In this document: piece after piece, positions 6,245 to 61,824 of the stretch
Numbering within the stretch: the stretch's first letter is position 1
Layout: every line of letters begins with the position of its first letter
Notes under the pieces: generated by a model
What the model saw: only the letters and a program-made list of their open reading frames with translations
Databases searched by the model: none
Told to the model about the DNA's origin: nothing
Translations under genes and position numbers: made by a program
Origin: Bacteroidales bacterium
GTDB taxonomy: Bacteria > Bacteroidota > Bacteroidia > Bacteroidales > UBA7960
DNA: 64,000 nucleotides
Direction of reading: 5' to 3'
Assembly: GCA_003550725.1 (NCBI GenBank)
Contig: PUKZ01000003.1
Coordinates: 31,124 to 95,123 of the forward strand

Positions 6245-6679
6245 ATGAAAATACTGATTTTGTGTACCGGCAATTCATGCAGAAGCCAAATGGCTCACGG
6301 CTTTTTAAAAAGCTTCGACCCCATGTTAAGTGTCTATTCAGGTGGAACTAAGCCCGAATCTAAAGTTAATCCATACGCAGTTAAGGTTATGAAAGAAGCC
6401 GGCGTCGATATAAGTGATCACCTGCCCGTAGATGCAGCCAAATATACTGACACTTCGTTCGATTGGGTTATTACCTTATGCGATAAGGCAAAGGAAACAT
6501 GCCCGGTTTTTAAAGGAAAAGTTGCATGCAAAATGCATATTAGTTTTGATGACCCCTCTGCTTATAATGGTTCAGAAGAACAAATACTAAAAGAATACCG
6601 CCGAATACGCGACCAAATTCTGGAAAGATTTAAAGCATTTTACAATAAAAGAATCCTGCAGGTAGATCAAGAGGGATAA
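6245..6679 (+). CDS. arsC: Arsenate reductase, thioredoxin-coupled LMW-PTP family
   Basis: 144 aa. It has the P-loop LCTGNSCRSQMA plus downstream Cys in ITLC and KETC, matching the Cys10/82/89 spacing of pI258-type ArsC. No arsR/arsB/acr3 gene is adjacent. Confidence 0.75.
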   Translation: MKILILCTGNSCRSQMAHGFLKSFDPMLSVYSGGTKPESKVNPYAVKVMKEAGVDISDHLPVDAAKYTDTSFDWVITLCDKAKETCPVFKGKVACKMHISFDDPSAYNGSEEQILKEYRRIRDQILERFKAFYNKRILQVDQEG

Positions 6680-6919
6680 CACCTAATAAACCAGAATATT
6701 TGTTGCTGTTTTATAAAAATTTTACAATAACACTCTTTTACATTCTTACTGATTTTGTAATTAATTAAAAAATCATTTTTTGTATATTTAGGTCAGGTTT
6801 TGAGTTTTATGTAACTTAAAGCTATTTTAATATATGACAACAAACAAAACATTTATTTCTAAATATTTAATCAGTTTTTTCTGGATAAACCTCAATTTTA
6901 ATTTGAAAAATATAAATAT

Positions 6920-7927
6920 ATGCATGAAGCACAATTTTATATCTCTCTCGAAGAAAATAAATTACAATGTCAACTTTGCCCCCATGTTTGTATAATAGGA
7001 GAAAACCGCCGGGGTAAATGCAATGTACGTATCAACAAATCAGGAAAGCTTTATAGTGAAAACTATGGCAAAGCTACAGGTATGCATTGCGAGCCGGTTG
7101 AAAAAAAACCCTTATATAACTTTTATCCCGGCCGCAAAATTTTTTCACTAGGCTCATACGGATGTAATCTTGATTGTAGTTTCTGTCAAAACTATCACTT
7201 ATCAAAAGCTTCATATTATAGTGTTATTTCTGCAAGCAATGCAAGTGTTAATGATGTAGTTGACAGGGTAATAAATTCGCCAAATAGTTGTGGTATCTCA
7301 TATACTTTTAACGAACCTTTTGTATGGTATGAGTATATGATAGATATTGCCGTTAAGGTAAAAGAAGAAGGTTATGCAAATGCAATTGTTTCAAATGGAT
7401 ACATTAATCCCAAACCTCTTGAAAAACTTCTTGATGTTATAGACGGTTTTAATATAGATTTAAAATCGTTCACCGATGATTTTTACAAAAAATATACAGG
7501 CGCATCATTGGAGCCGGTAAAAAAAACTCTAAAAACCATAGCCAAAAGAAATATTCACCTCGAAATTGCCAACCTGGTAATTCCCGGTTTAAATGATGAC
7601 ACAAAAACATTCGGTGATATGATAACCTGGATTTCTGACGAACTTGGTAAAGATACACCATTGCATATAAACAGATACTATCCTTCATATAAAATGAGTA
7701 TTGAACCAACTCCCCTTGAAACAATTGTAGAGCTAAGAGAAACAGCCCTTGAAAAACTTAATTTTGTCTATTGTGGTAACGTACCCCCGTTAAATGGCTG
7801 TAGCGATACTACATGCCCGGGATGCAGCGAAACAGTTATAAAAAGAACCGGTTATAAAACACTTGTTGATAATATAAATAAAAATGGTCATTGCGTGCAT
7901 TGTGATTATAAAATTGCTATTTGTTAA
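6920..7927 (+). CDS. amrS: AmmeMemoRadiSam system radical SAM enzyme
   Basis: 335 aa. It has an N-terminal Cys cluster (CQLCPHVC...GKCNVR), the radical SAM motif CNLDCSFCQNY and a C-terminal Cys-rich tail (CSDTTCPGC...CVHC). It is adjacent to a Memo-like gene. Confidence 0.8.
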   Translation: MHEAQFYISLEENKLQCQLCPHVCIIGENRRGKCNVRINKSGKLYSENYGKATGMHCEPVEKKPLYNFYPGRKIFSLGSYGCNLDCSFCQNYHLSKASYYSVISASNASVNDVVDRVINSPNSCGISYTFNEPFVWYEYMIDIAVKVKEEGYANAIVSNGYINPKPLEKLLDVIDGFNIDLKSFTDDFYKKYTGASLEPVKKTLKTIAKRNIHLEIANLVIPGLNDDTKTFGDMITWISDELGKDTPLHINRYYPSYKMSIEPTPLETIVELRETALEKLNFVYCGNVPPLNGCSDTTCPGCSETVIKRTGYKTLVDNINKNGHCVHCDYKIAIC

Positions 7928-11394: not shown

Positions 11395-11916
11395 TTAATC
11401 AAAATAAGCAATATCTTCAGGCGAATACTGATATAAATCCATATAATCCAACAAATATTCGAAATAAGCATCATCTTCCAATTCATCATCCATTGTAAAA
11501 AAATCAAACGATCCTTCAGGATATTCTAAATGTTCAATCTCTTCAGCCGCCAAAATATCATAATATGCTGTTTCATCATAATCTGCAAAATACGAAAAAT
11601 ATGATTCAAAAAGTTCATTATCAGCCTCTGAGTATAAATCGATATCGTTATTATTTGTAAAAAACAAGATTGATATTCCAAAAGATATCAACACTAATAA
11701 TGCTGATGCATAAGCCAGTAGTTTCCTGGGTGAAATGCTTAAAACTCCGGCATAAACTTTTTGCGGCTCACTATTTTTTAAATTTTGTACTTTCTCAGGC
11801 AAACCGGAAAAATAATTACCCGGAACATCGAATGGATTATCTTTTGAAACTTCTGATATATCGGGAGCTATATCATTAAGTTCTTTTTTCAGTATGTCAG
11901 GCTTTTCTTTTTCCAT
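11395..11916 (-). CDS. Single-pass membrane protein with an extremely acidic/aromatic C-terminal tail; possible anti-sigma partner
   Basis: 173 aa with a central TM helix (LLAYASALLVLISFGISILFF). The C-terminal ~85 aa are dominated by D/E/Y/F. It lies immediately downstream of the ECF sigma gene. No zf-HC2 motif is seen, so the anti-sigma role rests on position only. Confidence 0.45.
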   Translation of the reverse strand: MEKEKPDILKKELNDIAPDISEVSKDNPFDVPGNYFSGLPEKVQNLKNSEPQKVYAGVLSISPRKLLAYASALLVLISFGISILFFTNNNDIDLYSEADNELFESYFSYFADYDETAYYDILAAEEIEHLEYPEGSFDFFTMDDELEDDAYFEYLLDYMDLYQYSPEDIAYFD

Positions 11917-18660: not shown

Positions 18661-19581
18661 TTACGCCATACTATCTATGGTTCTCATGATTTTTTCTTTC
18701 TCTCCCGGTTGGTCAATTGAAATCCATTCAGCATCATTATATTTTTTAAACCAGGTTAGTTGCCTTTTTGCATAGCGACGTGTATTAGTTTTTATTTTTT
18801 CTATAGCTAAAGACAAAGAATAATGATTGCAAAAGAAAGCAAAAATCTCCTTATAGCCAACCGTATTGAGAGCATTATAATCTTTGTATAAAAACAAATC
18901 CCATGCCTCTTCAATAAGGCCTTGTTCAATCATATCGTCAACACGTTTATTAATACGTTCAAAGAGCTCTTGTCGCGGCCGGTTGAGTATTATGCGAATT
19001 ATTTTGAAAGGACGCTGCATGGGTTTACTCAAGGAGTGGAACTCTGAAAGATTCTTGCCTGTTTGCATATAAATCTCAACAGCTCTCATAATCCGGTTTG
19101 GATTAAACAAATCTGCTTTCCGATAATAGGCGGGATCAGCTTTTAGAAGTATCTTTCTTAACCCTGCCAATCCTTGTTTGTCATATATATGTTTAACATT
19201 TTTTCTTGTTTCTTTATCTACATCAGGCAAGTAATCTATCCCTTTACACACAGCATCAATATACAAACCCGAGCCACCCGTTAACACAACAAAATCTTTG
19301 GAAGCAAACAAATCTTCAATCACTCTCAAAGCATCTTTCTCAAACATGTATGCATTATAATACTGGCTTATTGAAAGGTGGCCAACGAAGTGATGCTTTA
19401 CCTGGTTAAGCTCCTCACCCGAGGGTGTAGCTGTACCTATTTTAAGTTCTTTATAAAACTGCCGTGCATCTGCAGAAATTATTTCAGTATTAAGCTCCTT
19501 TGCAATCTCAATACTTAATTTGGTTTTACCGACGGCGGTAGGCCCTGTTATAACTATCAGTGTTTTATCATTATTTATCAT
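18661..19581 (-). CDS. miaA: tRNA dimethylallyltransferase
   Basis: 306 aa with the P-loop ITGPTAVGKT, then IISADARQFY and TGGSGLYIDAV. Its ATG shares one base with the TAA of the upstream gene. Confidence 0.9.
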   Translation of the reverse strand: MINNDKTLIVITGPTAVGKTKLSIEIAKELNTEIISADARQFYKELKIGTATPSGEELNQVKHHFVGHLSISQYYNAYMFEKDALRVIEDLFASKDFVVLTGGSGLYIDAVCKGIDYLPDVDKETRKNVKHIYDKQGLAGLRKILLKADPAYYRKADLFNPNRIMRAVEIYMQTGKNLSEFHSLSKPMQRPFKIIRIILNRPRQELFERINKRVDDMIEQGLIEEAWDLFLYKDYNALNTVGYKEIFAFFCNHYSLSLAIEKIKTNTRRYAKRQLTWFKKYNDAEWISIDQPGEKEKIMRTIDSMA

Positions 19582-20246
19582 TATTGATCATCATCCGGTT
19601 CAAACTGCTCATTAGAATTATCATCTGTTATATTCAAATCATCATCATTATCATATTTAATATTCAATCCTTTAGTATCATCATAAGAATCCCCTTCACT
19701 ACCGCCTTCCTGATCCTTATCAGGATTATCTTCACTATTTATTGAATCAACCTTTTTTGGTAAAAATTCCTGTGGTATACCCCCGCTTTGTTTAATAATT
19801 TCAGGATAACTAACCTGCGGCTCTGCAGGAATGATTTTTAACAATTCAATATAAAAAGTCCAGTTATTCTGAAAGTCATAAACATATACAAGCCTTTGAT
19901 GCGGATCATCAATAAGATCGCTAAGCCTGTGATCTCTCATAATTAAAGCTTGCCTGTTGTTTTCTTCATTTTGATCATCCGCAACACTGTCTTCTGAAAT
20001 TTCATCATCAACGATTTCTTCAGATTCCTGATTATTGGTGCTTTCAGGCCGATCCATAATAATTTGCTTTTGCTTCCTGAATTTATAATTGCTTAAAAAA
20101 AAGGCTGCTGACTTTGTTTTGTCAAGCTTTAAATTTTCAACAATAAAATTGTGGAAATCTTCAAAGTTTTGATTTGAACTAAAAACAACCTCTCTTAAAA
20201 AAGAGTCATTATTTTCGAATCTTATTCTGAATCTAAAAGCAAACAT
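19581..20246 (-). CDS. Hypothetical protein; the N-terminal domain is possibly pRiA4b-ORF3-like, with long acidic low-complexity regions
   Basis: 221 aa. The sequence FRFRIRFENNDSFLREVVF...NFEDFHNFI...LVYVYDFQNNWTFYIELLKI resembles the PRiA4_ORF3 fold pattern from memory only. The C-terminal ~60 aa are D/E/N-rich. Confidence 0.45.
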   Translation of the reverse strand: MFAFRFRIRFENNDSFLREVVFSSNQNFEDFHNFIVENLKLDKTKSAAFFLSNYKFRKQKQIIMDRPESTNNQESEEIVDDEISEDSVADDQNEENNRQALIMRDHRLSDLIDDPHQRLVYVYDFQNNWTFYIELLKIIPAEPQVSYPEIIKQSGGIPQEFLPKKVDSINSEDNPDKDQEGGSEGDSYDDTKGLNIKYDNDDDLNITDDNSNEQFEPDDDQ

Positions 20247-31349: not shown

Positions 31350-32096
31350 CTATTTGCTTATTATAAGTTTTTTGGTACTTACCACCGTGTTGTCAATTAC
31401 AAGCGAATATAGGTATATACCATCCTGAAAAGATGATGTATTAAGCCTGTAATAATCGCTAAAGAGATCAAGGGTTATTTTTTTTACCAACAAACCATTT
31501 ATGTTGTTTATAACTATTGAGGCATTACTTGCACCATCGGGTAAATTATAAGAAATATGAGTAAAATCAGTGGCAGGATTGGGTGCAGGGCCAGACAGAT
31601 GATACACCGGGGCTTTTGGAAGCTCAACGCTGGAAGTAGATTCTGTATCAAAAACTATTGTCACATTGACCGCTTCAAAAGAATCATCCTCTTCGCTAAA
31701 AAATTCATAATTTATGATGCTTATACCAGAATTTCCATTTGGAATATACTCGGCATAAAAATCATCATCTGCCGAAGTTTCGCCCGGCCCCAATATTATC
31801 GGCTCAGTAGCTTCATAAACATCAGGGGGAAAACAAAGCCCATTCCAACAAAAAGTATTCATTGTGCCAGGCAGGATTTCTATTTCTTCTTTTCTTACAA
31901 GTACCTCAACATCTTCACCTGTATTGTTATGAAAAAAAACTTCACCTTTTATGATACTTTCATCCGGCGAACCTCTTACATGCAGCGTATCACCTGTAAT
32001 TTCATTATCTTCCGAATCAAGTAATATCAATCCTTCCCCCAAAGAAATTGAAGGTATAACAAAAAAACTTAAAATAAAATATACTAATTTGTTCAT
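31350..32096 (-). CDS. Secreted protein with a T9SS type A C-terminal sorting domain; N-terminal domain unknown
   Basis: 248 aa with a signal peptide. The C-terminal ~80 aa (PNPATDFTHISYNLPDG...GIYLYSLVIDNTVVSTKKLIISK) match the Por/T9SS CTD pattern. It contains FCWNGLCFPP. Confidence 0.7.
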   Translation of the reverse strand: MNKLVYFILSFFVIPSISLGEGLILLDSEDNEITGDTLHVRGSPDESIIKGEVFFHNNTGEDVEVLVRKEEIEILPGTMNTFCWNGLCFPPDVYEATEPIILGPGETSADDDFYAEYIPNGNSGISIINYEFFSEEDDSFEAVNVTIVFDTESTSSVELPKAPVYHLSGPAPNPATDFTHISYNLPDGASNASIVINNINGLLVKKITLDLFSDYYRLNTSSFQDGIYLYSLVIDNTVVSTKKLIISK

Positions 32097-32212
32097 AAAT
32101 GAAAAAATATTTAAAAATTATATAACGCTTGTAAACTATTCTTTTAGGATAGTTTTTAATAATCCCATAAAAACCTTAAATAATAATCCCGGAGCAACCG
32201 GGATTATTATCT

Positions 32213-34096
32213 TTAACGAGCCACTTGCACTCGCTTGGTTATGATACTTTCTTTGGTATGTATTTGAACAAAGTAAATACCCTGATGCAAATTACTAACA
32301 TTGATTTCTGAGCTTAATGCATCAACTGAAATCTCTTTTACCATTTGTCCGCTGACATTTATCAGCCTGATTTGTTTTATCAATTCATTTGATTCAACTG
32401 TAAGCCGGTTGCGTGCGGGATTGGGAAATATTACCATATCAATGGCATCATGTTTTTCAACAGAAGTAACATCATTAAAGTTAGCAACAATTTCAACATC
32501 ACCGGCCGGCATAGTTACAGTAGCTGTTTCCGATTCTGGGTCATCAATATGCTCTGTATCGCCCGACCAGTTTACAAACTCATAGTTTTCATTTGCTTCT
32601 GCAGAAATTGTCACTTCTTCACCAAAATAATATTCACCTTCACCGTCAACACTACCACCTTCTTCTGGGTCTGCTGAAATATTAAGACTATATAATATCG
32701 GTTCCATTATTACATTAACAGTTATATCATCATCAACATCAACACTTCCTTCATAATCAAGATGATATTCTGCTTCTACAAGGTAATCATATTCTCCGGG
32801 GATAACTATAAACTCGTAGTCGCCCGCTTGGTTAGTCATATCACCTAAAGTAATGACGGCATTATCGATTACGTAGCCATATTCATTTTCCACCTCGAAA
32901 GTAACTGTATACTCTTCGCCGGATTCAAGTTCAATTTCTACTGTTGTATCTTCAGTTATTTCAATATCTCCTGATTGAGTAAGATAATCTTCTAATGAAA
33001 CGCTCCATTCATAAGTACCTTCAAATACTTCATCAAAAACTATTATACCGTCTTCATCGGTTTCGCCTTCGTGGTCACCCAGTTCAACCCAGGCTCCTTC
33101 AAGGGGATCTTCGGTTGTTTCGCAAGTCACGATAAAAGTAACTTCATAAGCCTCTTCAAGCACTATATTTATTGTCATATCATCATCAACAGTAACTTCA
33201 TCTACAACGGTTTTATATCCGTCTTTTTCTACCTTATATTGATAATCACCCCCCGGTATATTGTTGAAAGAATAATCACCCGGACTGTTTTTAAAAACAT
33301 CGAATGTTACAATTGCATCAGTTATTTCATTACCATCATCGTCAAAAACATCAAAAGTGACTTCATGAAAGTCGGCCTGAAGATGAACGATATTAGCCTG
33401 AAATATTTCTTTGGAAGGTACATCCTGAACAAAAGCTATCACACTCATATTCTCTTCCTCCCAGTTTTGATCCAGGGTAAAACTTAAATCAACCACTTCA
33501 ACATCATTTGATGAAAAGTCGAGTGAAGTACCAAACTGATCAGGCGCCATAAGACGAAGCGCATCTTTCACATAGTTCTGGTTTTGCCAGTTATAAGGGA
33601 TATCTGTTTCAGTAACAGCAAAATGTAAAACAAGGTCATCAGCATCATAATCGTCTGAAACTTCTGTTATCTCAATACTTGCATCCCAGTCTAAACCTCC
33701 TGTGTTTTCAAAATAAATAGCAACAGTAAATGGAGAAGGAACATCAATTCTTTGATTATAGTAATTTAAATATACCGGATAAAGACTTTGGTTTGTACTT
33801 CCTCCCGCATGTTCCAGAATACCATCAATACGGGTATTAGGATAACCGGAAACCCCATAATAGCTGTTCCTGGCATTGGAATACACATTAGCAAAAGCAT
33901 CTCCATTATGATTTTTAATGATTGCTACTTCATGGCCATTTTCTATCAAATCATCGGCTCCCATTGCAGCACCAACACAAAACGGACACCAGGTCCCGGT
34001 TCCTATTTCAAAAACGACTTTTTGCCTTGAAACAGGCTCACCATAGGCTGTTAAGCCAAAAAAAATCACAATTAAACTAAGTATCGCTTTTTTCAT
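32213..34096 (-). CDS. T9SS cargo: an N-terminal WCxxC thioredoxin-like (Omp28-related-like) domain, three beta-sandwich repeats, a Listeria-Bacteroides-type repeat and a T9SS CTD
   Basis: 627 aa with a signal peptide, EIGTGTWCPFCVGAAMGADDL, and three CarboxypepD_reg-like ~70-aa repeats (e.g. HEVTFDVFDDDGNEITDAIVTFD...GGDYQYKVEKDGY). Further along are EGGSVDGEGEYYFGEEVTISAEANENYEFVNWSGD and the CTD FPNPARNRLTVESN...GIYFVQIHTKESIITKRVQVAR. The protein is strongly acidic. Confidence 0.7.
   Translation of the reverse strand: MKKAILSLIVIFFGLTAYGEPVSRQKVVFEIGTGTWCPFCVGAAMGADDLIENGHEVAIIKNHNGDAFANVYSNARNSYYGVSGYPNTRIDGILEHAGGSTNQSLYPVYLNYYNQRIDVPSPFTVAIYFENTGGLDWDASIEITEVSDDYDADDLVLHFAVTETDIPYNWQNQNYVKDALRLMAPDQFGTSLDFSSNDVEVVDLSFTLDQNWEEENMSVIAFVQDVPSKEIFQANIVHLQADFHEVTFDVFDDDGNEITDAIVTFDVFKNSPGDYSFNNIPGGDYQYKVEKDGYKTVVDEVTVDDDMTINIVLEEAYEVTFIVTCETTEDPLEGAWVELGDHEGETDEDGIIVFDEVFEGTYEWSVSLEDYLTQSGDIEITEDTTVEIELESGEEYTVTFEVENEYGYVIDNAVITLGDMTNQAGDYEFIVIPGEYDYLVEAEYHLDYEGSVDVDDDITVNVIMEPILYSLNISADPEEGGSVDGEGEYYFGEEVTISAEANENYEFVNWSGDTEHIDDPESETATVTMPAGDVEIVANFNDVTSVEKHDAIDMVIFPNPARNRLTVESNELIKQIRLINVSGQMVKEISVDALSSEINVSNLHQGIYFVQIHTKESIITKRVQVAR
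32298..32676. repeat. Duplicated block R1, copy a (partner 34261-34639)
   Basis: My hand alignment is collinear with no indels (constant offset 1963), with roughly 25 mismatches over ~379 nt. The block covers the Listeria-Bacteroides repeat and most of the CTD. Confidence 0.85.
33209..33752. repeat. Duplicated block R2, copy a (partner 34722-35264)
   Basis: The hand alignment is collinear at constant offset 1513, with about nine in ten bases identical by eye. It covers the first beta-sandwich repeat and the distal half of the N-terminal domain. Identity falls off sharply beyond 33752/35264. Confidence 0.85.
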
Positions 34097-34175
34097 AAGT
34101 TTAGGTTTTAAATTAATAATTAGATGTTAGTAAATATATTTTAATTTCCATGTTATAACAAAAACAAAATTATGT

Positions 34176-35624
34176 TTAGTTTACTATCTGAATAATTTCG
34201 TTTATTATACTTTCTTTAGTAAATATTTGCATGATGTAAGCCCCGTTTTTTAAGTTACTCACATTGATTTCTGAGCTTGAAGCATCAACTGAAATCTCCT
34301 TTACCATTTGTCCGCTGGCATTTATAAGCCTTATTTGTTTTATCAATTCATTTGATTCAACTGTAAGCTTGTTGCGTGCGGGATTGGGAAATATTACCAT
34401 ATCAATGGCATCATGTTTTTCAACATAAGTAACATCATTAAAGTTAGCAACGATCTCAACATCACCGGCCGGCATGGTTACAGTTGCTGTTTCCGATTCA
34501 GGATCATCAATATGCTCTGTATTACCTGACCAGTTTACAAACTCATAGTTTTCATTTGCTTCTGCAGAAATTGTCACTTCTTCACCAAAATAATATTCAC
34601 CTTCGCCGTAAACACTTCCTCCTTCTTCAGGGTATGCTGATAAACCAAGGCTAAAGAATTCCAACTCTTCCATAACAACCTCCAAAGTAACTTCATCATC
34701 AACAACAACCTCATCTTCAATGGTTTTATACCCGTCTTTTTCTACCTTATATTGATAATTACCCCCTGGTATATTGTTGAAGGAATAATCACCCGGATTG
34801 TTTTTAAAAACATCGAATGTTACAATTGCATCAATTATTTCATTACCATCATTGTCAAAAACATCAAAAGTGACAGTATGGAAGTCGGCCTGAAGATGAA
34901 CAATATTAGCCTGAAATATTTCTTTGGTTTGTTTATCCTGAACAAAAGCTATCACACTCATATTCTCTTGCTTCCAGTCTTCATCCAGGGTAAAACTTAA
35001 ATCAACCACTTCTATATCATTTGATGAAAAGTCGAGAGAAGTACCAAACTGATCTGGTGCCATGATGCGAAGCACATCTTTCACATGCGTTTGATTAAAC
35101 CAGTTATGAGGAATATCAGTTTCAGTAACGGCAAAATGTAAAACAAGGTCATCAGCATCATAGTCGTCTGAAACTTCTGTTATCTCAATACTTGCATCCC
35201 AGTTTAAGTCTCCCGTGTTTTCAAAATAAATGGCAACAGTATGTGGAGAGGGAATGTCAATTCTCTTATCGTAATATTGCTTATAGGCCACATATAAACT
35301 GCTGTCCGGACTTCCCGAAGAATGTGTAAGCACGCCATCAAACTTAGCTGTTGGATAGCCCAAAATTCCATAATAATCTATACGGTGTGTATGGTAAGCA
35401 TTAGTAAATTCATCGTTAAAGTGATATTTTAAAACAGCCACATTATGCTGGTTTTCGATCAAATCTGCAGCTCCCATTGCAGCACCCGGACAGTTGTAAC
35501 ACCATACATCGGTAACTATTTCTACAACCACATTTTGACGTGGTATACCCCTACCATAAAGAGAATTAAGCCCAAGTAAAATCAAAATAAAAAAAAATAT
35601 TCCTTTTTTCCTAATTATTAACAT
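34176..35624 (-). CDS. T9SS cargo, shorter tandem paralog of 32213-34096 (WCxxC domain, one beta-sandwich repeat, Listeria-Bacteroides-type repeat, CTD)
   Basis: 482 aa with EIVTDVWCYNCPGAAMGAADL. Large blocks are nearly identical to the neighbouring gene at both the protein and DNA level. The CTD is FPNPARNKLTVESN...GAYIMQIFTKESIINEIIQIVN. Confidence 0.7.
   Translation of the reverse strand: MLIIRKKGIFFFILILLGLNSLYGRGIPRQNVVVEIVTDVWCYNCPGAAMGAADLIENQHNVAVLKYHFNDEFTNAYHTHRIDYYGILGYPTAKFDGVLTHSSGSPDSSLYVAYKQYYDKRIDIPSPHTVAIYFENTGDLNWDASIEITEVSDDYDADDLVLHFAVTETDIPHNWFNQTHVKDVLRIMAPDQFGTSLDFSSNDIEVVDLSFTLDEDWKQENMSVIAFVQDKQTKEIFQANIVHLQADFHTVTFDVFDNDGNEIIDAIVTFDVFKNNPGDYSFNNIPGGNYQYKVEKDGYKTIEDEVVVDDEVTLEVVMEELEFFSLGLSAYPEEGGSVYGEGEYYFGEEVTISAEANENYEFVNWSGNTEHIDDPESETATVTMPAGDVEIVANFNDVTYVEKHDAIDMVIFPNPARNKLTVESNELIKQIRLINASGQMVKEISVDASSSEINVSNLKNGAYIMQIFTKESIINEIIQIVN
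34261..34639. repeat. Duplicated block R1, copy b (partner 32298-32676)
   Basis: See copy a. Confidence 0.85.
34722..35264. repeat. Duplicated block R2, copy b (partner 33209-33752)
   Basis: See copy a. Confidence 0.85.
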
Positions 35625-55480: not shown

Positions 55481-56434
55481 ATGTCAAAAAGAATTTCAAC
55501 GTTTGTCATTTTCATATTTATTGGATTAAGCGCGTTATCGCAACAAGATATTCAGTTTAGTCACAATATGTACAATACGATGGGTATTAATCCCGGATAT
55601 GCAGGTATGCGTGGTGCGATTTGTGCTACTGCATTTGCCAGGCAGCAATGGGTTGGATTCAGAGATGATGAAGATGCACGTGTTCATCCGCAAACATACA
55701 GCCTCAATATTGATGCACCCATAAACATTTTAAGGGGCGGTGTTTCATTAGGTCTTTTGCAAGACGAGTTAGGGTATGAAAATAATATCGGTTTAAAATT
55801 AGGATATGCTTATCATGTTCCTTTAGGTTTAGGCGATCTTGGGATTGGTTTCCATGCCGGCTTTCTTGACAAAAGCATTGGGTTTGATAAATTCGAGCCC
55901 ATAGATCAAAATGACCCAGCTCTTTCGGGAGGCAGTGATGAGTCGGCAATGTTTATTGATGCTGCTATGGGTGCTTTTTACAAATTAGATGATTGGTGGG
56001 CAGGATTCTCTCTTACACAGATGTTTCAAACCAGTAGAGAAATTGGTGGAGGAAATGCCGAATATGAACTGCAAAGACATGCTTATCTGAGCGGAGGATA
56101 CAATTTCAAAATACCCGATCATCCAACATTTGTTGTAAGTCCATCATTATTAATAAAAACAGATATTAATGCGTTACAGGCTGATTTAAACACACTGGTA
56201 ACATACAATGACAGGGTATGGGGCGGATTAAGCTACAGGTATCAAGATGCCGTTGTTATATTTTTGGGATTAAGCCTTGACCAAATAAGTGTTGGTTATT
56301 CCTATGACATAACCACTTCACCTATTGGTCGTCATGGCCGCAGTTATGGAAGTCATGAGCTTATGGTTCAATATTGTTTCGACCTTGAGCTTGACCGTAT
56401 TCTAAGGCCGCATAGAACTACAAGACATTTATAA
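55481..56434 (+). CDS. porP: Type IX secretion system membrane protein, PorP/SprF family
   Basis: 317 aa with a signal peptide followed by QQDIQFSHNMYNTMGINPGYAG, the family N-terminal signature. It lies directly upstream of gldK. Confidence 0.8.
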   Translation: MSKRISTFVIFIFIGLSALSQQDIQFSHNMYNTMGINPGYAGMRGAICATAFARQQWVGFRDDEDARVHPQTYSLNIDAPINILRGGVSLGLLQDELGYENNIGLKLGYAYHVPLGLGDLGIGFHAGFLDKSIGFDKFEPIDQNDPALSGGSDESAMFIDAAMGAFYKLDDWWAGFSLTQMFQTSREIGGGNAEYELQRHAYLSGGYNFKIPDHPTFVVSPSLLIKTDINALQADLNTLVTYNDRVWGGLSYRYQDAVVIFLGLSLDQISVGYSYDITTSPIGRHGRSYGSHELMVQYCFDLELDRILRPHRTTRHL

Positions 56435-56582
56435 GCATTAAAAAAATATTATCGTACGATGTAACAATATGTACAAAATATCGTTAAAGACTTTAAAGCT
56501 TATTATAAAAAGCTTATTATAATAAGAGAAAGAGTATAAATTGAAAAAAATATGATCATAAAAAGTAAATAAGGAGCCTAGC

Positions 56583-57881
56583 ATGAAAAATTTAGTTTTA
56601 TTTATTTTGGTTATTATTGTTTTTGCCAGTTGCGACAGAAGAACCGGTCAACTAACGGGTGTACAAGACAGGCCCAGGGTATATGATGAAAAGCCTGCGG
56701 GTATGGTTTATATACCAATGGGAAGTTTTATGATGGGGCCCTCTGACGAAGATATAGCATATTCACATAATGCCGTATCAAAAAGAGTTTCTGTAAGGTC
56801 ATTCTACATGGATGAAACAGCCATAACCAATAACCAATACCGCCAGTTTGTACATTGGGTAAGAGACTCTTTGTTCAGATTGGAGTTGGGAGAAGCCTTA
56901 GACGATGAGTTTTTAATCTTTAGTGATGATTTCGGCCAGGAATTAGACCCCCCATTGATCAACTGGGATGCCGGGTTCGACTTGCAAGATGAGGAAGTCA
57001 GGTTAGCTTTAGAAGACTTTTATCTGCCGGAACATGAAAGGTTCTTTCGCCGAAGAGAAATTGATACACGCCAGCTTATTTACAGATATCATATAATAGA
57101 CCTAAATCGTGCAGCCAGGAAAGATGAGCGGGATACACCGAGAAATGAATTCGTAAGAGAATGGGAAACACATGTTTATCCTGATACGCTTACATGGATT
57201 CACGATTTCAGCTATGCCTATAATGAGCCTATGACACAAATGTATTTTTGGCACCCGACCTATGACCATTACCCCGTGGTAGGTGTAAATTGGGAACAGG
57301 CTCGTGCTTTCACTGTTTGGAGAACGCAATTCCTTAACAGTTATTTACAAAGAAGGGGAAGGGCAATGGCTATGGACTTCAGGCTACCAACCGAAGCCGA
57401 ATGGGAATATGCAGCAAGAGGTGGACTGGAGCTTAATCCATATCCCTGGGGTGGTCCGTATACAAGAAACCAGGATGGTTGTTTCCTTGCTAACTTTAAG
57501 CCTATGCGTGGAGATTATGTCTCTGACGGAGGCTTCCAAACAGTTATAGTTGGCCACTATCCACCAAATGATTATGGACTTTATGATATGGCAGGAAACG
57601 TTTCAGAATGGACCCGAAATACATACGACGAATCTTTTTACATATATGGCCATGATATGAATATGGATTATCATTATGAGTTCGATCCGGATGAAGACCC
57701 ACCGGCTCTTAGCAGAAAAGTAATCAGGGGCGGTTCATGGAAAGATGTAGCCTATTTTTTGCAAGTAAGCACAAGAAACTATGAATATCAGGACACAGCA
57801 AAATCCTATATAGGCTTTCGTACTGTACAAACATATTTAGGTACAGACAGGAGACACGGAGAAACTTCCAATATTTATTAA
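56583..57881 (+). CDS. gldK: Gliding motility/T9SS lipoprotein GldK (PorK), FGE-sulfatase fold
   Basis: 432 aa with the lipobox FASCD. The FGE/SUMF1-type motifs are YMDETAITNNQY, NWEQARAF, EAEWEYAARGG and RGGSW. Confidence 0.9.
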   Translation: MKNLVLFILVIIVFASCDRRTGQLTGVQDRPRVYDEKPAGMVYIPMGSFMMGPSDEDIAYSHNAVSKRVSVRSFYMDETAITNNQYRQFVHWVRDSLFRLELGEALDDEFLIFSDDFGQELDPPLINWDAGFDLQDEEVRLALEDFYLPEHERFFRRREIDTRQLIYRYHIIDLNRAARKDERDTPRNEFVREWETHVYPDTLTWIHDFSYAYNEPMTQMYFWHPTYDHYPVVGVNWEQARAFTVWRTQFLNSYLQRRGRAMAMDFRLPTEAEWEYAARGGLELNPYPWGGPYTRNQDGCFLANFKPMRGDYVSDGGFQTVIVGHYPPNDYGLYDMAGNVSEWTRNTYDESFYIYGHDMNMDYHYEFDPDEDPPALSRKVIRGGSWKDVAYFLQVSTRNYEYQDTAKSYIGFRTVQTYLGTDRRHGETSNIY

Positions 57882-57935
57882 TATTTTACGTTATTAAGAA
57901 AAAAATTAAACTAAATAAATTAAACCTTAAGCAAT

Positions 57936-59015
57936 ATGAAATTCACGCACACAAAAGCTTTTAAAAGCTGGATGACAAAATTATATGGATTTGGAGCAGC
58001 TGTTGTACTTCTGGGAGCTTTATTCAAAATACAGCACTATCCAGGGGCTGATATAATGCTCGTTGTTGGATTAGGCACCGAGGCTTTTATATTTTTTATG
58101 TCGGCTTTCGAACCGGTTCATTCTGAACCCGACTGGTCGTTAGTATATCCTGAATTAGGAGGCCTGGATAATCTTGATGAAGAAGAAATAGAAGAAAGAA
58201 AAGCATTAAGGCAATCAAATGCTGCAGCTGCAGCACCAGTTAGTGCAGCAGGACAAACCACACAAAACATAACCCTGTCAGGAAACCTTGACAAATTATT
58301 AGAAGAAGCTGATATCGGTCCTGAGCTTATTGAAAATCTTGGTCAAGGACTTAGAAATCTAAGTGAAAATACTCAAAAATTAGCCGATATTTCAAATGCT
58401 GCCATTGCAACAAATAATTATATTCAAAATATGGAAGCAGCATCTCAATCAGTTATTGAACTTAGCCAATCATACAAAAATACTGCTGAATATCTAAAGC
58501 ATGATCTTAGTCTTAATGAAGAATATGCAAATAGTTTGCAAAACGCAGTGAAATCGGTTAACGAAATAAGTGATTCTTATCAAAAAACAGCAGAAACTGC
58601 AAAAGAAAATCTTGATGCTACTAAAGAATATACTGAAAGCCTGAAAAGTATAAGTGGATATACAAATAAACTGGCTGAGGTTTATGCCAACAGCTCTGAA
58701 TCTTTAACAAAAACAGCAGAGTCATTGCAAAAATCAACGCAAAGCGGCCAGCAATTCAGTAATCAGTTGCAGGAAACAGTTGAAAATCTTTCAGCCTTAA
58801 ATGCAGTATATGAGCTCCAATTACAGTCATCAAATGAACAATACCAACATAGCAGTAAATTACAGGAAACAATGTCAACGCTTATTGAAAATCTCAACAA
58901 TTCAGCTAATGATACCCAGAAATACAGAGAAGAGATGGATAAGTTGACAAATAATATAACTGCATTAAACAGCGTTTATGGCAATATGCTTTCTGCTATG
59001 AATGTTAACAAATAA
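57936..59015 (+). CDS. gldL: Gliding motility/T9SS protein GldL (PorL)
   Basis: 359 aa with two N-terminal TM helices (LYGFGAAVVLLGALFKIQHYPGADIMLVVGLGTEAFIFFMSAFEP) and a long helical cytoplasmic domain. Confidence 0.9.
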   Translation: MKFTHTKAFKSWMTKLYGFGAAVVLLGALFKIQHYPGADIMLVVGLGTEAFIFFMSAFEPVHSEPDWSLVYPELGGLDNLDEEEIEERKALRQSNAAAAAPVSAAGQTTQNITLSGNLDKLLEEADIGPELIENLGQGLRNLSENTQKLADISNAAIATNNYIQNMEAASQSVIELSQSYKNTAEYLKHDLSLNEEYANSLQNAVKSVNEISDSYQKTAETAKENLDATKEYTESLKSISGYTNKLAEVYANSSESLTKTAESLQKSTQSGQQFSNQLQETVENLSALNAVYELQLQSSNEQYQHSSKLQETMSTLIENLNNSANDTQKYREEMDKLTNNITALNSVYGNMLSAMNVNK

Positions 59016-59062
59016 AAATAATTATTAAGCTTAAAACAGATATAATAAATATCCCATAACCT

Positions 59063-60649
59063 ATGGCTAAAGAAACCAATCGCCAGAAACTAGTCAAGCT
59101 GATGTATCTCGTTTTCCTGTCTTTAATGGCACTCAACGTTGATGTATCAGTACTTAATTCATTTGTACGTGTTGATGACGGGTTAAATGAAACCAATGTC
59201 AATTTTGCGAGAAAAGTGGATATGGTTTATTCCGATTTTGATCAGCAAAAAGCCATTTCAGAAGATTTAGTTTATCCATATTATGATAGAGCATATTATG
59301 TCAAGGAATTATCTGATTCACTTGTCAATAAAATTAAAAGATTAAGAAGTCAGACGATAGCAGAAGCAGATGGTATTGATTTTGAAAAAGCTGATACTCT
59401 CAATCTTATGGATCTCCAAAATAAGGACAATTATAGCAGGACAACAAGATTTTGGATGACAGAAGGATTAAGTACGGGTGCCAGCGATGGAGGTTCAGGT
59501 TCCAGGGCATATAAACTTCGCAATACAATCGAAAACTATAAAGAAGAAATTATCAATCAACTTGACTCTGCCCATCGTGAATTTCTCAGGTTAGGACTAG
59601 ACACTGAAGGCCCTTTTTATACCGCGGGTGGTGATGAAATAAACTGGCAACAAGCAATGTTTAATCGCATCCCCCCTGTTGCCAAAGCAACCAGTCTGAG
59701 CCGGCTGATTACTGATGTACGTAATGCCGAATTTGATGTTATATCAATACTATATGGAGCAATTACCGAGGAAGACTTCCGGTTTGACCGAATTGAAGCA
59801 AGAGTTGTACCTCAAAGCCAGATAGTAATGGCCGGAGACGAATATACGGCTGACATTTTTGTTGCAGCTTATGATACCCGGCAAGAACCTACAATTATTG
59901 TTGACGGTCGTGAAATCCCGGTAGAAGATGGAATGGGTAAGTTCAGAAGAACTGCTGGCAGTGAAGGCGAGCAGAGTTTCAGTGGCGTTATCCGGGTTAC
60001 TTCTCCGGCAGGTATTGTGCAAGAATACGAATTTTCTGAACAATATACAGTGCAAAGGCCTTCGGTTACAGTATCAGCCGACAGAATGAATGTTTTTTAT
60101 GCCGGTGTTGATAATCCGGTTTCAATCTCTGCACCCGGAGTACCCGATGATAATATCAGGGCAAGTATTTCTCGCGGTTCAATCACACGAGAAGGAGGAG
60201 GTAGATATACTGTAAATGTGCCGGCAGATGTCAATGAAGTAGATGTTAGCATATCAGCTATAGTATCCGGTGAAACACACCCATTGCCTTCACAAACTTT
60301 CAGGGTACAAACAATTCCAGACCCAACACCAACAATAGCAGGACAGAAAGGAGGCGCCAGAATACCTGAATCAAGGCTTGTAAGCAACCGATTTGTTCGC
60401 GCAGAAGTTGATGAAAGTTTTCTTTTTGACATGGACTTTGAAATTGAATCTTTCACAATGGTTACCACTTCAAGAGCAGGCGATATAATTAGGGAATCCA
60501 CAACAGGTGGTATGCTTTCCGACAGAATGATTGAAATAATTGAAAGATTAAGAAGAGGTACATATATACATTTTGAAGACATCACTACCAGACCGGCAGC
60601 TGATGGAAGGAGAAGAAATTTGGGAACAGTCACAATAAGGCTGGACTAA
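59063..60649 (+). CDS. gldM: Gliding motility/T9SS protein GldM (PorM)
   Basis: 528 aa. The N-terminus RQKLVKLMYLVFLSLMALNV matches the GldM TM signature. It is followed by a large periplasmic domain. Confidence 0.9.
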   Translation: MAKETNRQKLVKLMYLVFLSLMALNVDVSVLNSFVRVDDGLNETNVNFARKVDMVYSDFDQQKAISEDLVYPYYDRAYYVKELSDSLVNKIKRLRSQTIAEADGIDFEKADTLNLMDLQNKDNYSRTTRFWMTEGLSTGASDGGSGSRAYKLRNTIENYKEEIINQLDSAHREFLRLGLDTEGPFYTAGGDEINWQQAMFNRIPPVAKATSLSRLITDVRNAEFDVISILYGAITEEDFRFDRIEARVVPQSQIVMAGDEYTADIFVAAYDTRQEPTIIVDGREIPVEDGMGKFRRTAGSEGEQSFSGVIRVTSPAGIVQEYEFSEQYTVQRPSVTVSADRMNVFYAGVDNPVSISAPGVPDDNIRASISRGSITREGGGRYTVNVPADVNEVDVSISAIVSGETHPLPSQTFRVQTIPDPTPTIAGQKGGARIPESRLVSNRFVRAEVDESFLFDMDFEIESFTMVTTSRAGDIIRESTTGGMLSDRMIEIIERLRRGTYIHFEDITTRPAADGRRRNLGTVTIRLD

Positions 60650-60720
60650 TGCAGTAATATAAAATATATGTTGCAGCATAAAAAATGAAAAAATAATTAG
60701 AGAAATAAAATCTTAATACT

Positions 60721-61824
60721 ATGAAAAAAATACTTATATCATTATTCGCCGGAGTTTTCCTTTTATTAATTTGCTCTAATATTGACGCACAAAGATATTC
60801 AGTTACATTTCAAATACTGGATGCAGATGGAGAGCGGCTGCGCGATGCTGTTGTAACTTTATCCGGCGTAACACAAGAGCCGGGTGAACATATATTCGAT
60901 AATGTACAAGCCGGCACCCAAACCTACTCAGTAGAAAAAGAAGGTTATACCTCAATCAGCTATGTAGATATTGAGGTTGATGATAATATCGAAGAGGTGG
61001 TAACAATGAGAGAAATCCCTCCAGATAGGTATTATTCTACTGACAGAGAACCGGATTTGTTGGACTTGAGGCAAAGGAAACCCCAGGAATTGGCTTATGT
61101 TAGAGAAGCTGATGTGTTGTGGGCAAAAAGAGTATGGCAGCAAGTAGATTTGCGCGAAAAAATAAACCAAACATTGTATTTCCCTATAGAACCAACAGAG
61201 GGAAGAAGAAGTTTAGCCCAGATATTATATGATGCTATTTTGGAAGGTGAAATCACAGCATTTCCTTATGAATACGATGATTTTAGCCATAGTTATACAC
61301 CATCTCAAGTCAGGCAACGACTGGAAGATGAATATGAAGAAACAATTTCTGCCGAAGAAGCTAGGCTGAGAGGCTGGGGTGAAATTGAAGGTACTGACAC
61401 TACATTTACTGTAACTGAACGTTTTAGGCCAGATGAAGTTACAAAACTAAGAATAAAGGAAGACTGGTTTTTTGATTCAAAAAGATCTGTACTGGATGTG
61501 AGAATTCTTGGAATAAGCCTGGTATCAGAACAATATGATGAGCATGAAGGAGTTTACAGGGACGAGCCGCTCTTTTGGGTATATTATCCTGAAGTACGAG
61601 ATGTATTAGCCAACGAAGAAGTTTATACAAGACATAGTGATGCACAAAAGATTTCTTTTGATGATTTGTTTTTGCGCCGCATGTTTAATGGATATATTAT
61701 CAAAGAAGCAAATGTTTATGACAGAAGTATTGCGGAATATGCCAGTGGATTAGATGCATTACTGGAAGCTGAAGAGATAAAAAACAAAATTCGGGAATTC
61801 GAACACGATCTTTGGGAATACTAA
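60721..61824 (+). CDS. gldN: Gliding motility/T9SS protein GldN (PorN)
   Basis: 367 aa with a signal peptide. It contains VLWAKRVWQQVDLREKIN and KLRIKEDWFFDSKRSVLDVRILGI, the characteristic GldN blocks. Confidence 0.85.
   Translation: MKKILISLFAGVFLLLICSNIDAQRYSVTFQILDADGERLRDAVVTLSGVTQEPGEHIFDNVQAGTQTYSVEKEGYTSISYVDIEVDDNIEEVVTMREIPPDRYYSTDREPDLLDLRQRKPQELAYVREADVLWAKRVWQQVDLREKINQTLYFPIEPTEGRRSLAQILYDAILEGEITAFPYEYDDFSHSYTPSQVRQRLEDEYEETISAEEARLRGWGEIEGTDTTFTVTERFRPDEVTKLRIKEDWFFDSKRSVLDVRILGISLVSEQYDEHEGVYRDEPLFWVYYPEVRDVLANEEVYTRHSDAQKISFDDLFLRRMFNGYIIKEANVYDRSIAEYASGLDALLEAEEIKNKIREFEHDLWEY

Follow-up and report, generated by a model that had tools for sequence, protein, structure and literature searches.

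The locus described here lies in a 64,000 nt stretch of DNA from a Bacteroidales bacterium (contig PUKZ01000003.1, positions 31,124–95,123, assembly GCA_003550725.1), which is referred to as the window; all positions given are those of the window unless another contig is named. Three consecutive open reading frames (ORFs) are present on the minus strand: g3 at positions 31350–32096 (248 aa), gene A at 32213–34096 (627 aa) and gene B at 34176–35624 (482 aa). B and A are the upstream and downstream members of a tandem pair of HBP35-like/Omp28-related type IX secretion system (T9SS) cargo proteins; g3 encodes a small T9SS cargo. All three end in a T9SS C-terminal sorting domain (CTD), as had been predicted from the sequence, with scores above the curated cut-offs of two models: 56.2, 49.7 and 42.5 bits with PF18962 (cut-off 27; E values 4e-15, 5e-13 and 8e-11, the last for g3) and 47.7, 43.1 and 32.0 bits with TIGR04183 (cut-off 23). 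The locus probably represents two tandem HBP35/"Omp28-related" T9SS cargo paralogs together with a small cargo resembling the PorA N-domain, the paralogs having arisen by an old duplication that was followed by gene conversion sparing their N-terminal heads.

Protein B consists of a signal peptide, a thioredoxin-fold head with the motif CYNC, an Ig-like domain, one CarboxypepD_reg-like repeat, an InlB B-repeat (Flg_new_2) and the CTD. Protein A has the same layout, except that the head motif is CPFC and there are three CarboxypepD_reg-like repeats. The head of A comprises aa 21–115 (33752–34036, minus strand) and is unconverted; that of B comprises aa 26–120 (35265–35549, minus strand) and is divergent, with a long branch. 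The two different motifs noted in the original prediction, TWCPFC in A and VWCYNC in B, are found as W36-C37-P-F-C40 at 33977–33991 and W41-C42-Y-N-C45 at 35490–35504. The Ig-like (Omp28-type) beta-sandwich of A is formed by aa 116–240 (33377–33751, minus strand) and is homogenised with B 34890–35264. The T9SS type A CTD of A is at aa 553–627 (32216–32440, minus strand). Putative Sec signal peptides can be read from the sequences as K-rich N-termini followed by hydrophobic stretches (MKKAILSLIVIFFGLTAYG; MLIIRKKGIFFFILILLGLNSLYG; MNKLVYFILSFFVIPSISLG). No lipobox Cys is present in the signal peptides of A and B; protein A contains no Cys before C37, and B none before C42.

A and B are clearly related (BLASTP E 1e-159), and the similarity is unevenly distributed. 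Tract 1 is at positions 33209–33752 of A (minus strand) and pairs with 34722–35265 of B; it spans the Ig-like domain and the first stalk repeat and shows 90.1% DNA identity over 544 nt without gaps. Tract 2 is at 32298–32676 of A (minus strand) and pairs with 34261–34639 of B; it takes in Flg_new_2 together with ~45 residues at the start of the CTD, with 93.7% DNA identity over 379 nt, also ungapped. The final 29 residues of the A CTD are outside the converted tract. These are the two ungapped blocks of roughly nine-in-ten identity originally reported, with the end coordinate 35264 corrected to 35265. DNA identity in 20-codon windows is 55–70% from codon 1 to about codon 115–120 and 80–100% in the cores, and it is 60–73% over the last ~29–30 codons. 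The divergence that had been described for both ends is therefore present at the DNA level.

Nei-Gojobori estimates of synonymous and non-synonymous divergence (dS and dN) between A and B follow the same pattern. The head (A 21–115) has a dS of 1.75 and a dN of 0.45, whereas the values are 0.27 and 0.07 in tract 1 (A 116–300) and 0.24 and 0.04 in tract 2 (A 471–598). In the last 29 codons dS is saturated and dN is 0.37. The ratio dN/dS is 0.26 in the head vs. 0.27 in tract 1, and this equality implies heterogeneity of age and not protein-level selection. A maximum chi-square breakpoint is found at codon 116 of A; the chi-square value of 123 was reached by none of 1000 permutations. With synonymous sites alone, the observed maximum was reached by 1 of 2000 permutations. 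The divergence is thus not uniform, and the mosaic structure originally proposed is real. The equal dS in the two tracts fits one conversion episode. At the protein level, the heads of A and B have 51.6% amino acid identity, compared with 85.6% in the Ig-like segment. Relative to sequences from outside the window, the A head shows up to 69.5% identity, and many of these outside sequences are closer to it than is the B head; the Ig-like segment of A shows 58% identity at most.

The age of the duplication was assessed by comparison with a locus termed L001 (PWZB01000198.1, a metagenome-assembled genome (MAG) of Bacteroidales bacterium T3Sed10_157R1). It is the closest relative among at least 357 found in a scan of one genome per GTDB species, all of which are MAGs of Bacteroidales, Cloacimonadota, Ignavibacteria or Marinimicrobia. 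L001 has two tandem genes (715 and 553 aa) and a g3 homolog (58% identical), followed by tsf, rpsB, rpsI and rplM on the opposite strand; the tandem pair, the third gene and the tsf/rpsB/rpsI synteny are common to the window and L001. The A head is 73.7% identical to that of the L001 downstream copy, and the two L001 heads are 60% identical to each other. Neighbor-joining trees with 200 bootstraps were made separately for the head and Ig-like segments. In the head tree, A groups with the L001 downstream copy in 147/200 replicates and with B in 0/200, and B groups with the L001 upstream copy in 22/200. In the Ig-like tree, A and B group together in 195/200 and the two L001 copies in 126/200. 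Grouping of heads by position and of Ig-like segments by genome implies that duplication came before the two lineages separated. Block similarity would then result from later gene conversion, independent in the two genomes, from which the heads and the extreme C-terminus escaped. Judged from these sequence comparisons, the A/B duplication is old and shared with a Bacteroidales MAG, and the block similarity is secondary and due to conversion. The recent duplication proposed originally is not supported, in that the pair and its synteny are already present in L001 and the A head has the L001 downstream copy (147/200), and never B (0/200), as its sister. A metagenome scan for close relatives of A gave C-terminal partial matches (residues ~435–627, 28–45% identity), none of them nearer than L001. 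Neighbor and copy-number counts were made over 80 HBP35-like loci, and two copies are present in 14 of these.

Other origins of the pair can be considered. If the tandem duplication were recent, the youth of the copies would explain the similar blocks, and diversifying selection would have driven a fast divergence of heads and CTD tails. Block identities of 90–94% agree with this, as does the long-branched B head, which is off at 7 of 53 conserved columns. However, the dS of the head is saturated (1.75) while its dN/dS (0.26) equals that of the blocks, so the head is older and not just faster in protein change. In addition, the A head shows less identity to B (51.6%) than to many outside sequences (69.5% at most) and to the L001 downstream copy (73.7%), an A+B head clade is not recovered in any of the 200 replicates, and the tandem pair already exists in L001. 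These observations make a recent duplication very unlikely. A different possibility is that the pair is young or fully homogenised and that the head and CTD end of B were swapped in from a distant paralog or a foreign allele. The best match of the B head is 47% identical, its grouping with the L001 upstream copy appears in only 22/200 replicates, and the breakpoints are sharp and located at a domain boundary, all of which speaks for such a replacement. It is nevertheless an unlikely origin, because the L001 heads are also just 60% identical, which indicates that divergent heads were present in the common ancestor, and because the Ig-like segment clusters within the genome in both genomes, as conversion predicts. 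A donor was not found in 5.8 billion proteins nor in the genome and metagenome scans.

There is also the question of whether the tandem copies are mis-assembled strain variants of one gene. The window is apparently from an uncultured organism, no exact copy of protein A is found in public assemblies, and repeats with 90–94% identity are hard to assemble. Against this, both ORFs are intact, their heads and tails differ, their flanks are unrelated, and there is a 155-codon difference in length; the two-gene arrangement and its synteny are found again in a MAG that was assembled independently, and two copies recur in 14/80 related loci. An assembly artefact is thus extremely improbable, and an old duplication with later partial conversion is retained as the explanation of the pair.

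The N-terminal region of A (residues 1–245) was modeled by AlphaFold2, on the basis of an alignment of its database homologs, with a pLDDT of 92.3 and a pTM of 0.87. DSSP assignments in the model are strand 27–33, helix 40–52, strand 57–63, helix 71–79, strands 87–90 and 94–97 and helix 106–117, i.e., the beta-alpha-beta-alpha-beta-beta-alpha order of a canonical thioredoxin fold, followed by a beta-sandwich at 123–238. The CxxC motif (C37/C40) is located where helix 1 starts, and P86, conserved in "GYPT", directly precedes strand 3. In a family alignment of 30 sequences, C40 and P86 do not vary, and the conservation of C37 and W36 is 90% or more. The homologs have the conserved sequence E-I-G-T-G-T-W-C-x-Y/F-C-P-G-A-A-M-G-A-D-D-L and an invariant Pro in G-Y-P-T. 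The thioredoxin-like character previously assigned to the N-terminal domain is in agreement with the order of secondary structure elements, the position of CxxC and the invariant Pro.

A Foldseek comparison of the A model with the PDB places HBP35 (5Y1A) first (E 2.6e-15, TMq 0.76, 245 columns), ahead of other matches by ten orders of magnitude; second is the Omp28 domain 2R2C (TMt 0.72). A family profile also matches 5Y1A (E 2.4e-4), with VVLEIgTGtWCxYCPG aligned with VVLEVFTAEWCGYCPG of HBP35; the significant stretch is limited to 22 residues around CxxC. With the Pfam Omp28 model (PF11551, aa ~76–240), B has a score of 36.2 bits, which is above the gathering cut-off of 34.9. Matches to NF045500 ("Omp28-related selenoprotein") extend over aa 23–241 with 69.2 and 58.9 bits (cut-off 200), and those to NF033782 (Omp28 lipoprotein), 17.5 and 28 bits, are far under the cut-off of 150. 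The surface-directed WCxxC domain thus belongs to the already known HBP35/Omp28-related family of T9SS cargo. The original prediction had regarded the family as one of unknown function, which does not stand; A and B have the domain pair of HBP35, a protein with published thioredoxin activity, hemin binding and T9SS-dependent attachment to the surface. The thioredoxin head has no Pfam model, which is why the domain could not be placed at first. A and B were also considered as selenoproteins of the NF045500 type, and this was rejected on the basis of scores far below the cut-off, uninterrupted ORFs and Cys at both motif positions. In the literature no paper was found on "Omp28" with "selenoprotein", and "Omp28-related" is mentioned in passing only. 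The weak second copies in Ignavibacteria loci, described below, do not have an in-frame TGA at the motif and show an ordinary N-V-S-C-x-P-C.

B has a head that deviates at 7 of the 53 columns with conservation of at least 90%. Its CYNC is unique among 69 family ORFs, a set that is biased by the scan pattern. The B head has a long branch, and its best database match is 47% identical. The ORF is intact and under purifying selection.

Several points weigh against the interpretation given here. Sequence likeness to HBP35 does not go beyond the motif, and identity over the structurally aligned residues is 18%. The head alone (aa 21–113) matches no Pfam family at E ≤ 0.1, and its best direct sequence match in the PDB is a thioredoxin, 1FO5, with an E of 0.21. 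A has 32.6 bits with the Pfam Omp28 model, just under the gathering cut-off. Both proteins depart from the family C-x-[YF]-C-P-G, A having V for P and B having N for Y/F, and these atypical residues around CxxC could alter the redox activity. The long branch of B might mirror relaxed function. The biochemical role of A and B is a prediction by analogy. As to the history of the pair, the dating depends on one related genome, L001, in which the paralog clade has just 63% bootstrap support, the conversion may have run either way, and the indel may be a gain in A or a loss in B.

The CxxC could also be non-catalytic, i.e., A and B could be mainly adhesins, heme or metal binders, or a polyanionic coat, with a Cys pair that is structural or metal-binding. 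Hemin binding by HBP35 maps outside the thioredoxin motif, and the stalks (24–34% D+E, 0–5% K+R) would suit cation binding. Both heads have atypical residues around CxxC, and two homologs have Ser for the first Cys. These two, P0044 and P0055, have F-S-P-Y-C in place of W-C-x-Y-C and represent monothiol variants. On the other hand, conservation in the family extends to the Cys pair, to W36 and to the loop with P86, with a dN/dS of 0.26, the thioredoxin activity of HBP35 depends on the equivalent cysteines, and the region matches the NCBI "Omp28-related selenoprotein" subgroup, which suggests redox chemistry. A non-catalytic role is therefore considered doubtful. By analogy with HBP35, disulfide reduction or exchange is predicted for the A and B heads.

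The A-specific segment, aa 316–470 (32687–33151, minus strand), consists of 155 residues and represents two further CarboxypepD_reg/transthyretin-like stalk repeats. PF13620 (CarboxypepD_reg) matches the shared repeat of A at aa 241–315 with an E of 4e-8, and the extra repeats with 3e-6 and 7e-4. The ~150 extra residues first described as two repeats are accounted for in this way, and the variation in domain number is confirmed, with one stalk repeat in B and three in A. Over the four genes in the window and L001, the repeat numbers are 1, 3, 3 and 5. A DNA self-comparison of A shows no similarity of the extra repeats to repeat 1, and a recent internal repeat expansion in A was rejected on this basis. 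One of the extra repeats resembles a repeat type in the L001 upstream gene. This likeness, and the lack of self-similarity at the DNA level, imply that the extra repeats are old modules lost or gained by indel and not products of a recent internal duplication. The L001 downstream gene does have a recent internal duplication (78% identity).

The two large proteins have pI values of 4.05 and 4.24, with a third value of 4.12; D+E is 20% and 17% and K+R is 4–6%, so the extreme acidity originally pointed out is borne out. The HBP35-like family has a median pI of 4.7 and 9.6% D+E, and the proteins of the window and L001 (17–20%) have about twice that D+E. Acidity in A resides in the Ig-like and stalk domains, with 20–34% D+E and 0–5% K+R, and the head has 8% D+E. 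The extra repeats have 24–34% D+E, and K and R are wholly absent from CPD2, CPD3 and Flg_new_2. The CTD of A is basic (pI 9.4); the CTD of T9SS cargo is the part that is cleaved off. A halophile-type acidity of the whole proteome was considered as a cause of the low pI and rejected, as cytoplasmic ORFs of the window have pI values of 5.6–10. These ordinary values imply that acidity belongs to the displayed stalks and not to the proteome as a whole. Two small acidic ORFs are found elsewhere in the window, at 11395–11916 and 19581–20246 (both minus strand), with pI values of 4.05 and 4.24, D+E of 22–23% and no obvious signal peptide.

A complete cluster of the T9SS core genes porP/sprF, gldK, gldL, gldM and gldN is at positions 55481–61824 (plus strand), about 20 kb from the cargo genes, and all score above equivalog cut-offs. 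Their presence shows that the secretion system needed by the CTDs is encoded in the window. In the GldN/PorN homolog (60721–61824, plus strand), the match to the GldN model does not start before aa 117. The ~100 residues at the N-terminus of this homolog (nt 60778–61014) are similar to the CarboxypepD_reg-like stalk repeat found in A and B, with 35–36% identity and tblastn E values of 1e-9 to 4e-11. GldN proteins normally do not have such an N-terminal extension.

A search of 5.8 billion proteins gave 65 homologs of A residues 1–245, the best being 60% identical. Those with names are annotated either with the PGAP name "Omp28-related outer membrane protein" or as "T9SS type A sorting domain-containing protein". 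At the C-terminus the homologs differ, with PKD domains, a T9SS CTD or a dockerin. The nearest relatives, P0001 and P0003–P0006 (58–60% identical), end in a dockerin (PF00404) and not in a T9SS CTD. The alternation of dockerin and CTD ends suggests that the thioredoxin and Ig-like module has been joined to different surface-anchoring systems. Seven loci from Ignavibacteria and some Bacteroidales (L033, L036, L048, L066, L073, L075 and L076) have a second Omp28-type gene upstream, 25–31% identical, with N-V-S-C-x-P-C. The occurrence of this motif in distant second genes implies that CxxC belongs to a wider Omp28 superfamily. Directly upstream of the tandem pair in L001 is a gene for a TlpA/ResA-type periplasmic redoxin (6441–6947 of that contig, minus strand; motif "FWATWCRPC"), which recurs in 10/80 loci. 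The redoxin is absent at the matching position of the window, where carboxynorspermidine synthase and decarboxylase genes are found instead.

The product of the third gene, g3, has a beta-sandwich of ~130 aa between its signal peptide and its CTD (aa 172–246), and matches no Pfam family outside the CTD. N-x-F-C-x(3,4)-C-x-x-P is common to its homologs, in which neither Cys varies; the sequence in g3 itself is FCWNGLCFPP. The AlphaFold2 model (pLDDT 84) shows a beta-sandwich and the CTD, and its top Foldseek match is the PorA N-domain, 6KJK (E 3.5e-7, TMt 0.74). A profile of 18 g3-type N-domains matches the same structure with an E of 3.5e-5 over 91 residues, and the Cys pair is in the alignment. 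On the basis of model and profile, g3 is classed as a remote relative of the PorA N-terminal domain. In a profile search of 1.84 billion representatives, 1890 proteins were found at E ≤ 1e-3 and 928 at E ≤ 1e-10. They carry one, two or three copies of the domain and have lengths of ~245, 375 and 515 aa.

A g3-type ORF is the top recurrent neighbor of the HBP35-like genes and is present in 19–20 of the 80 loci. By comparison of coordinates, roughly 16 are directly adjacent, often divergent. The loci with a g3-type gene include L001, L009, L012, L015, L017, L018, L024, L027, L053, L058, L061 and L073–L076. This recurrent neighborhood points to some functional link. A more speculative proposal is that HBP35-like surface thioredoxins and the g3 family form a conserved two-protein surface redox module across the FCB group, in which the g3 domain would be the dedicated partner or substrate of the thioredoxin head, the tandem heads with their differing CxxC dipeptides would tune redox potential, and conversion would keep the stalks interchangeable. 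Such a module is unlikely. If it exists, the PorA N-domain, so far an orphan regarded as specific to Porphyromonas, would gain both a wide family and a function open to testing.

A hairpin with a perfect 15-bp stem (AGATAATAATCCCGG...CCGGGATTATTATTT) and a T-rich tail is located directly after the stop codon of A (32178–32212, minus strand) and is the strongest terminator-like site in the region; nothing comparable is present between B and A. The Bacteroidetes motif TAnnTTTG is found 28 nt upstream of the B start and 76 nt upstream of the A start, where it overlaps the B stop-codon region, and was not found upstream of g3. A sigma-70 promoter scan was uninformative (25 sites observed, 21.9 expected). 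The sequence signals give weak support to a co-transcription of B and A, with g3 transcribed separately.

The following explanation is proposed. A, B and g3 would be exported by Sec, after which their CTDs would be recognized by the GldKLMN/PorP T9SS, whose genes are 20 kb distant. If the analogy with HBP35 holds, disulfides would be reduced or exchanged by the head, and hemin or a similar ligand may be bound by the part of the protein that follows it. The pair would have arisen by an old tandem duplication, after which gene conversion would have homogenised the stretch between the head/Ig boundary at codon 116 and a point ~30 codons short of the stop. Under purifying selection the heads would remain divergent, and the 155-codon indel would alter the number of stalk repeats.

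HBP35 of Porphyromonas gingivalis (PGN_0659/PG0616, 5Y1A) is the closest known system. It reduces insulin faster than E. coli thioredoxin, for which C48 and C51 are needed, and complements an E. coli dsbA mutant (PMC2907840). It binds hemin through M135–P344, outside the thioredoxin motif, and the bacterium needs it to grow when hemin is low; as a T9SS cargo, HBP35 is anchored via anionic LPS (PMC2907840). A 2026 preprint describes an HBP35-like T9SS surface protein with thioredoxin and Ig-like domains in Muribaculaceae. A and B share with HBP35 the signal peptide, the thioredoxin fold with W-C-x-Y/F-C-P-G, the Ig-like sandwich and the CTD. They differ in that identity is ~18%, 1–3 transthyretin-like repeats and an InlB B-repeat are inserted between the Ig-like domain and the CTD, acidity is far greater, and the genes form a tandem pair with differing CxxC dipeptides. 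The Ig-like domain of A and B also matches the Omp28 family (PF11551, 2R2C) by fold and, for B, by HMM. However, Omp28 proper is a lipoprotein, whereas A and B are without a lipobox Cys and carry a T9SS CTD instead. The HBP35 architecture is thus not peculiar to P. gingivalis and is found in a large environmental family with varied C-terminal ends, among them PKD domains, a dockerin, stalk repeats and the CTD.

PorA of P. gingivalis (PGN_0123) is similar to g3 in length (~246–248 aa) and in layout, with a beta-sandwich of ~130 aa between a signal peptide and a CTD, although the kinship is very remote. The homologs that its authors found by BLAST were confined to Porphyromonas. PorA (246 aa) acts on the PorXY-SigP pathway via its CTD, as a PorXY ligand. 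As this role is seated in the CTD, it says little about the N-domain, which is the part shared with g3. The PorA-like neighbor, g3, offers a lead on the role of the PorA N-domain and is the most useful lead from this locus.

In other respects the case is ordinary, and current understanding is not overturned. As in known examples of concerted evolution by partial gene conversion, A and B cluster by genome in one segment and by ortholog in another, and the break in dS is sharp at the tract edges, as expected and with nothing unusual. The pair can be viewed as a natural experiment in which conversion levelled all but the heads, so that a functional difference should map to the CPFC and CYNC heads. 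What sets A and B apart from the usual partial conversion is that the tract edge is the thioredoxin/Ig domain boundary and the heads have been left unconverted.

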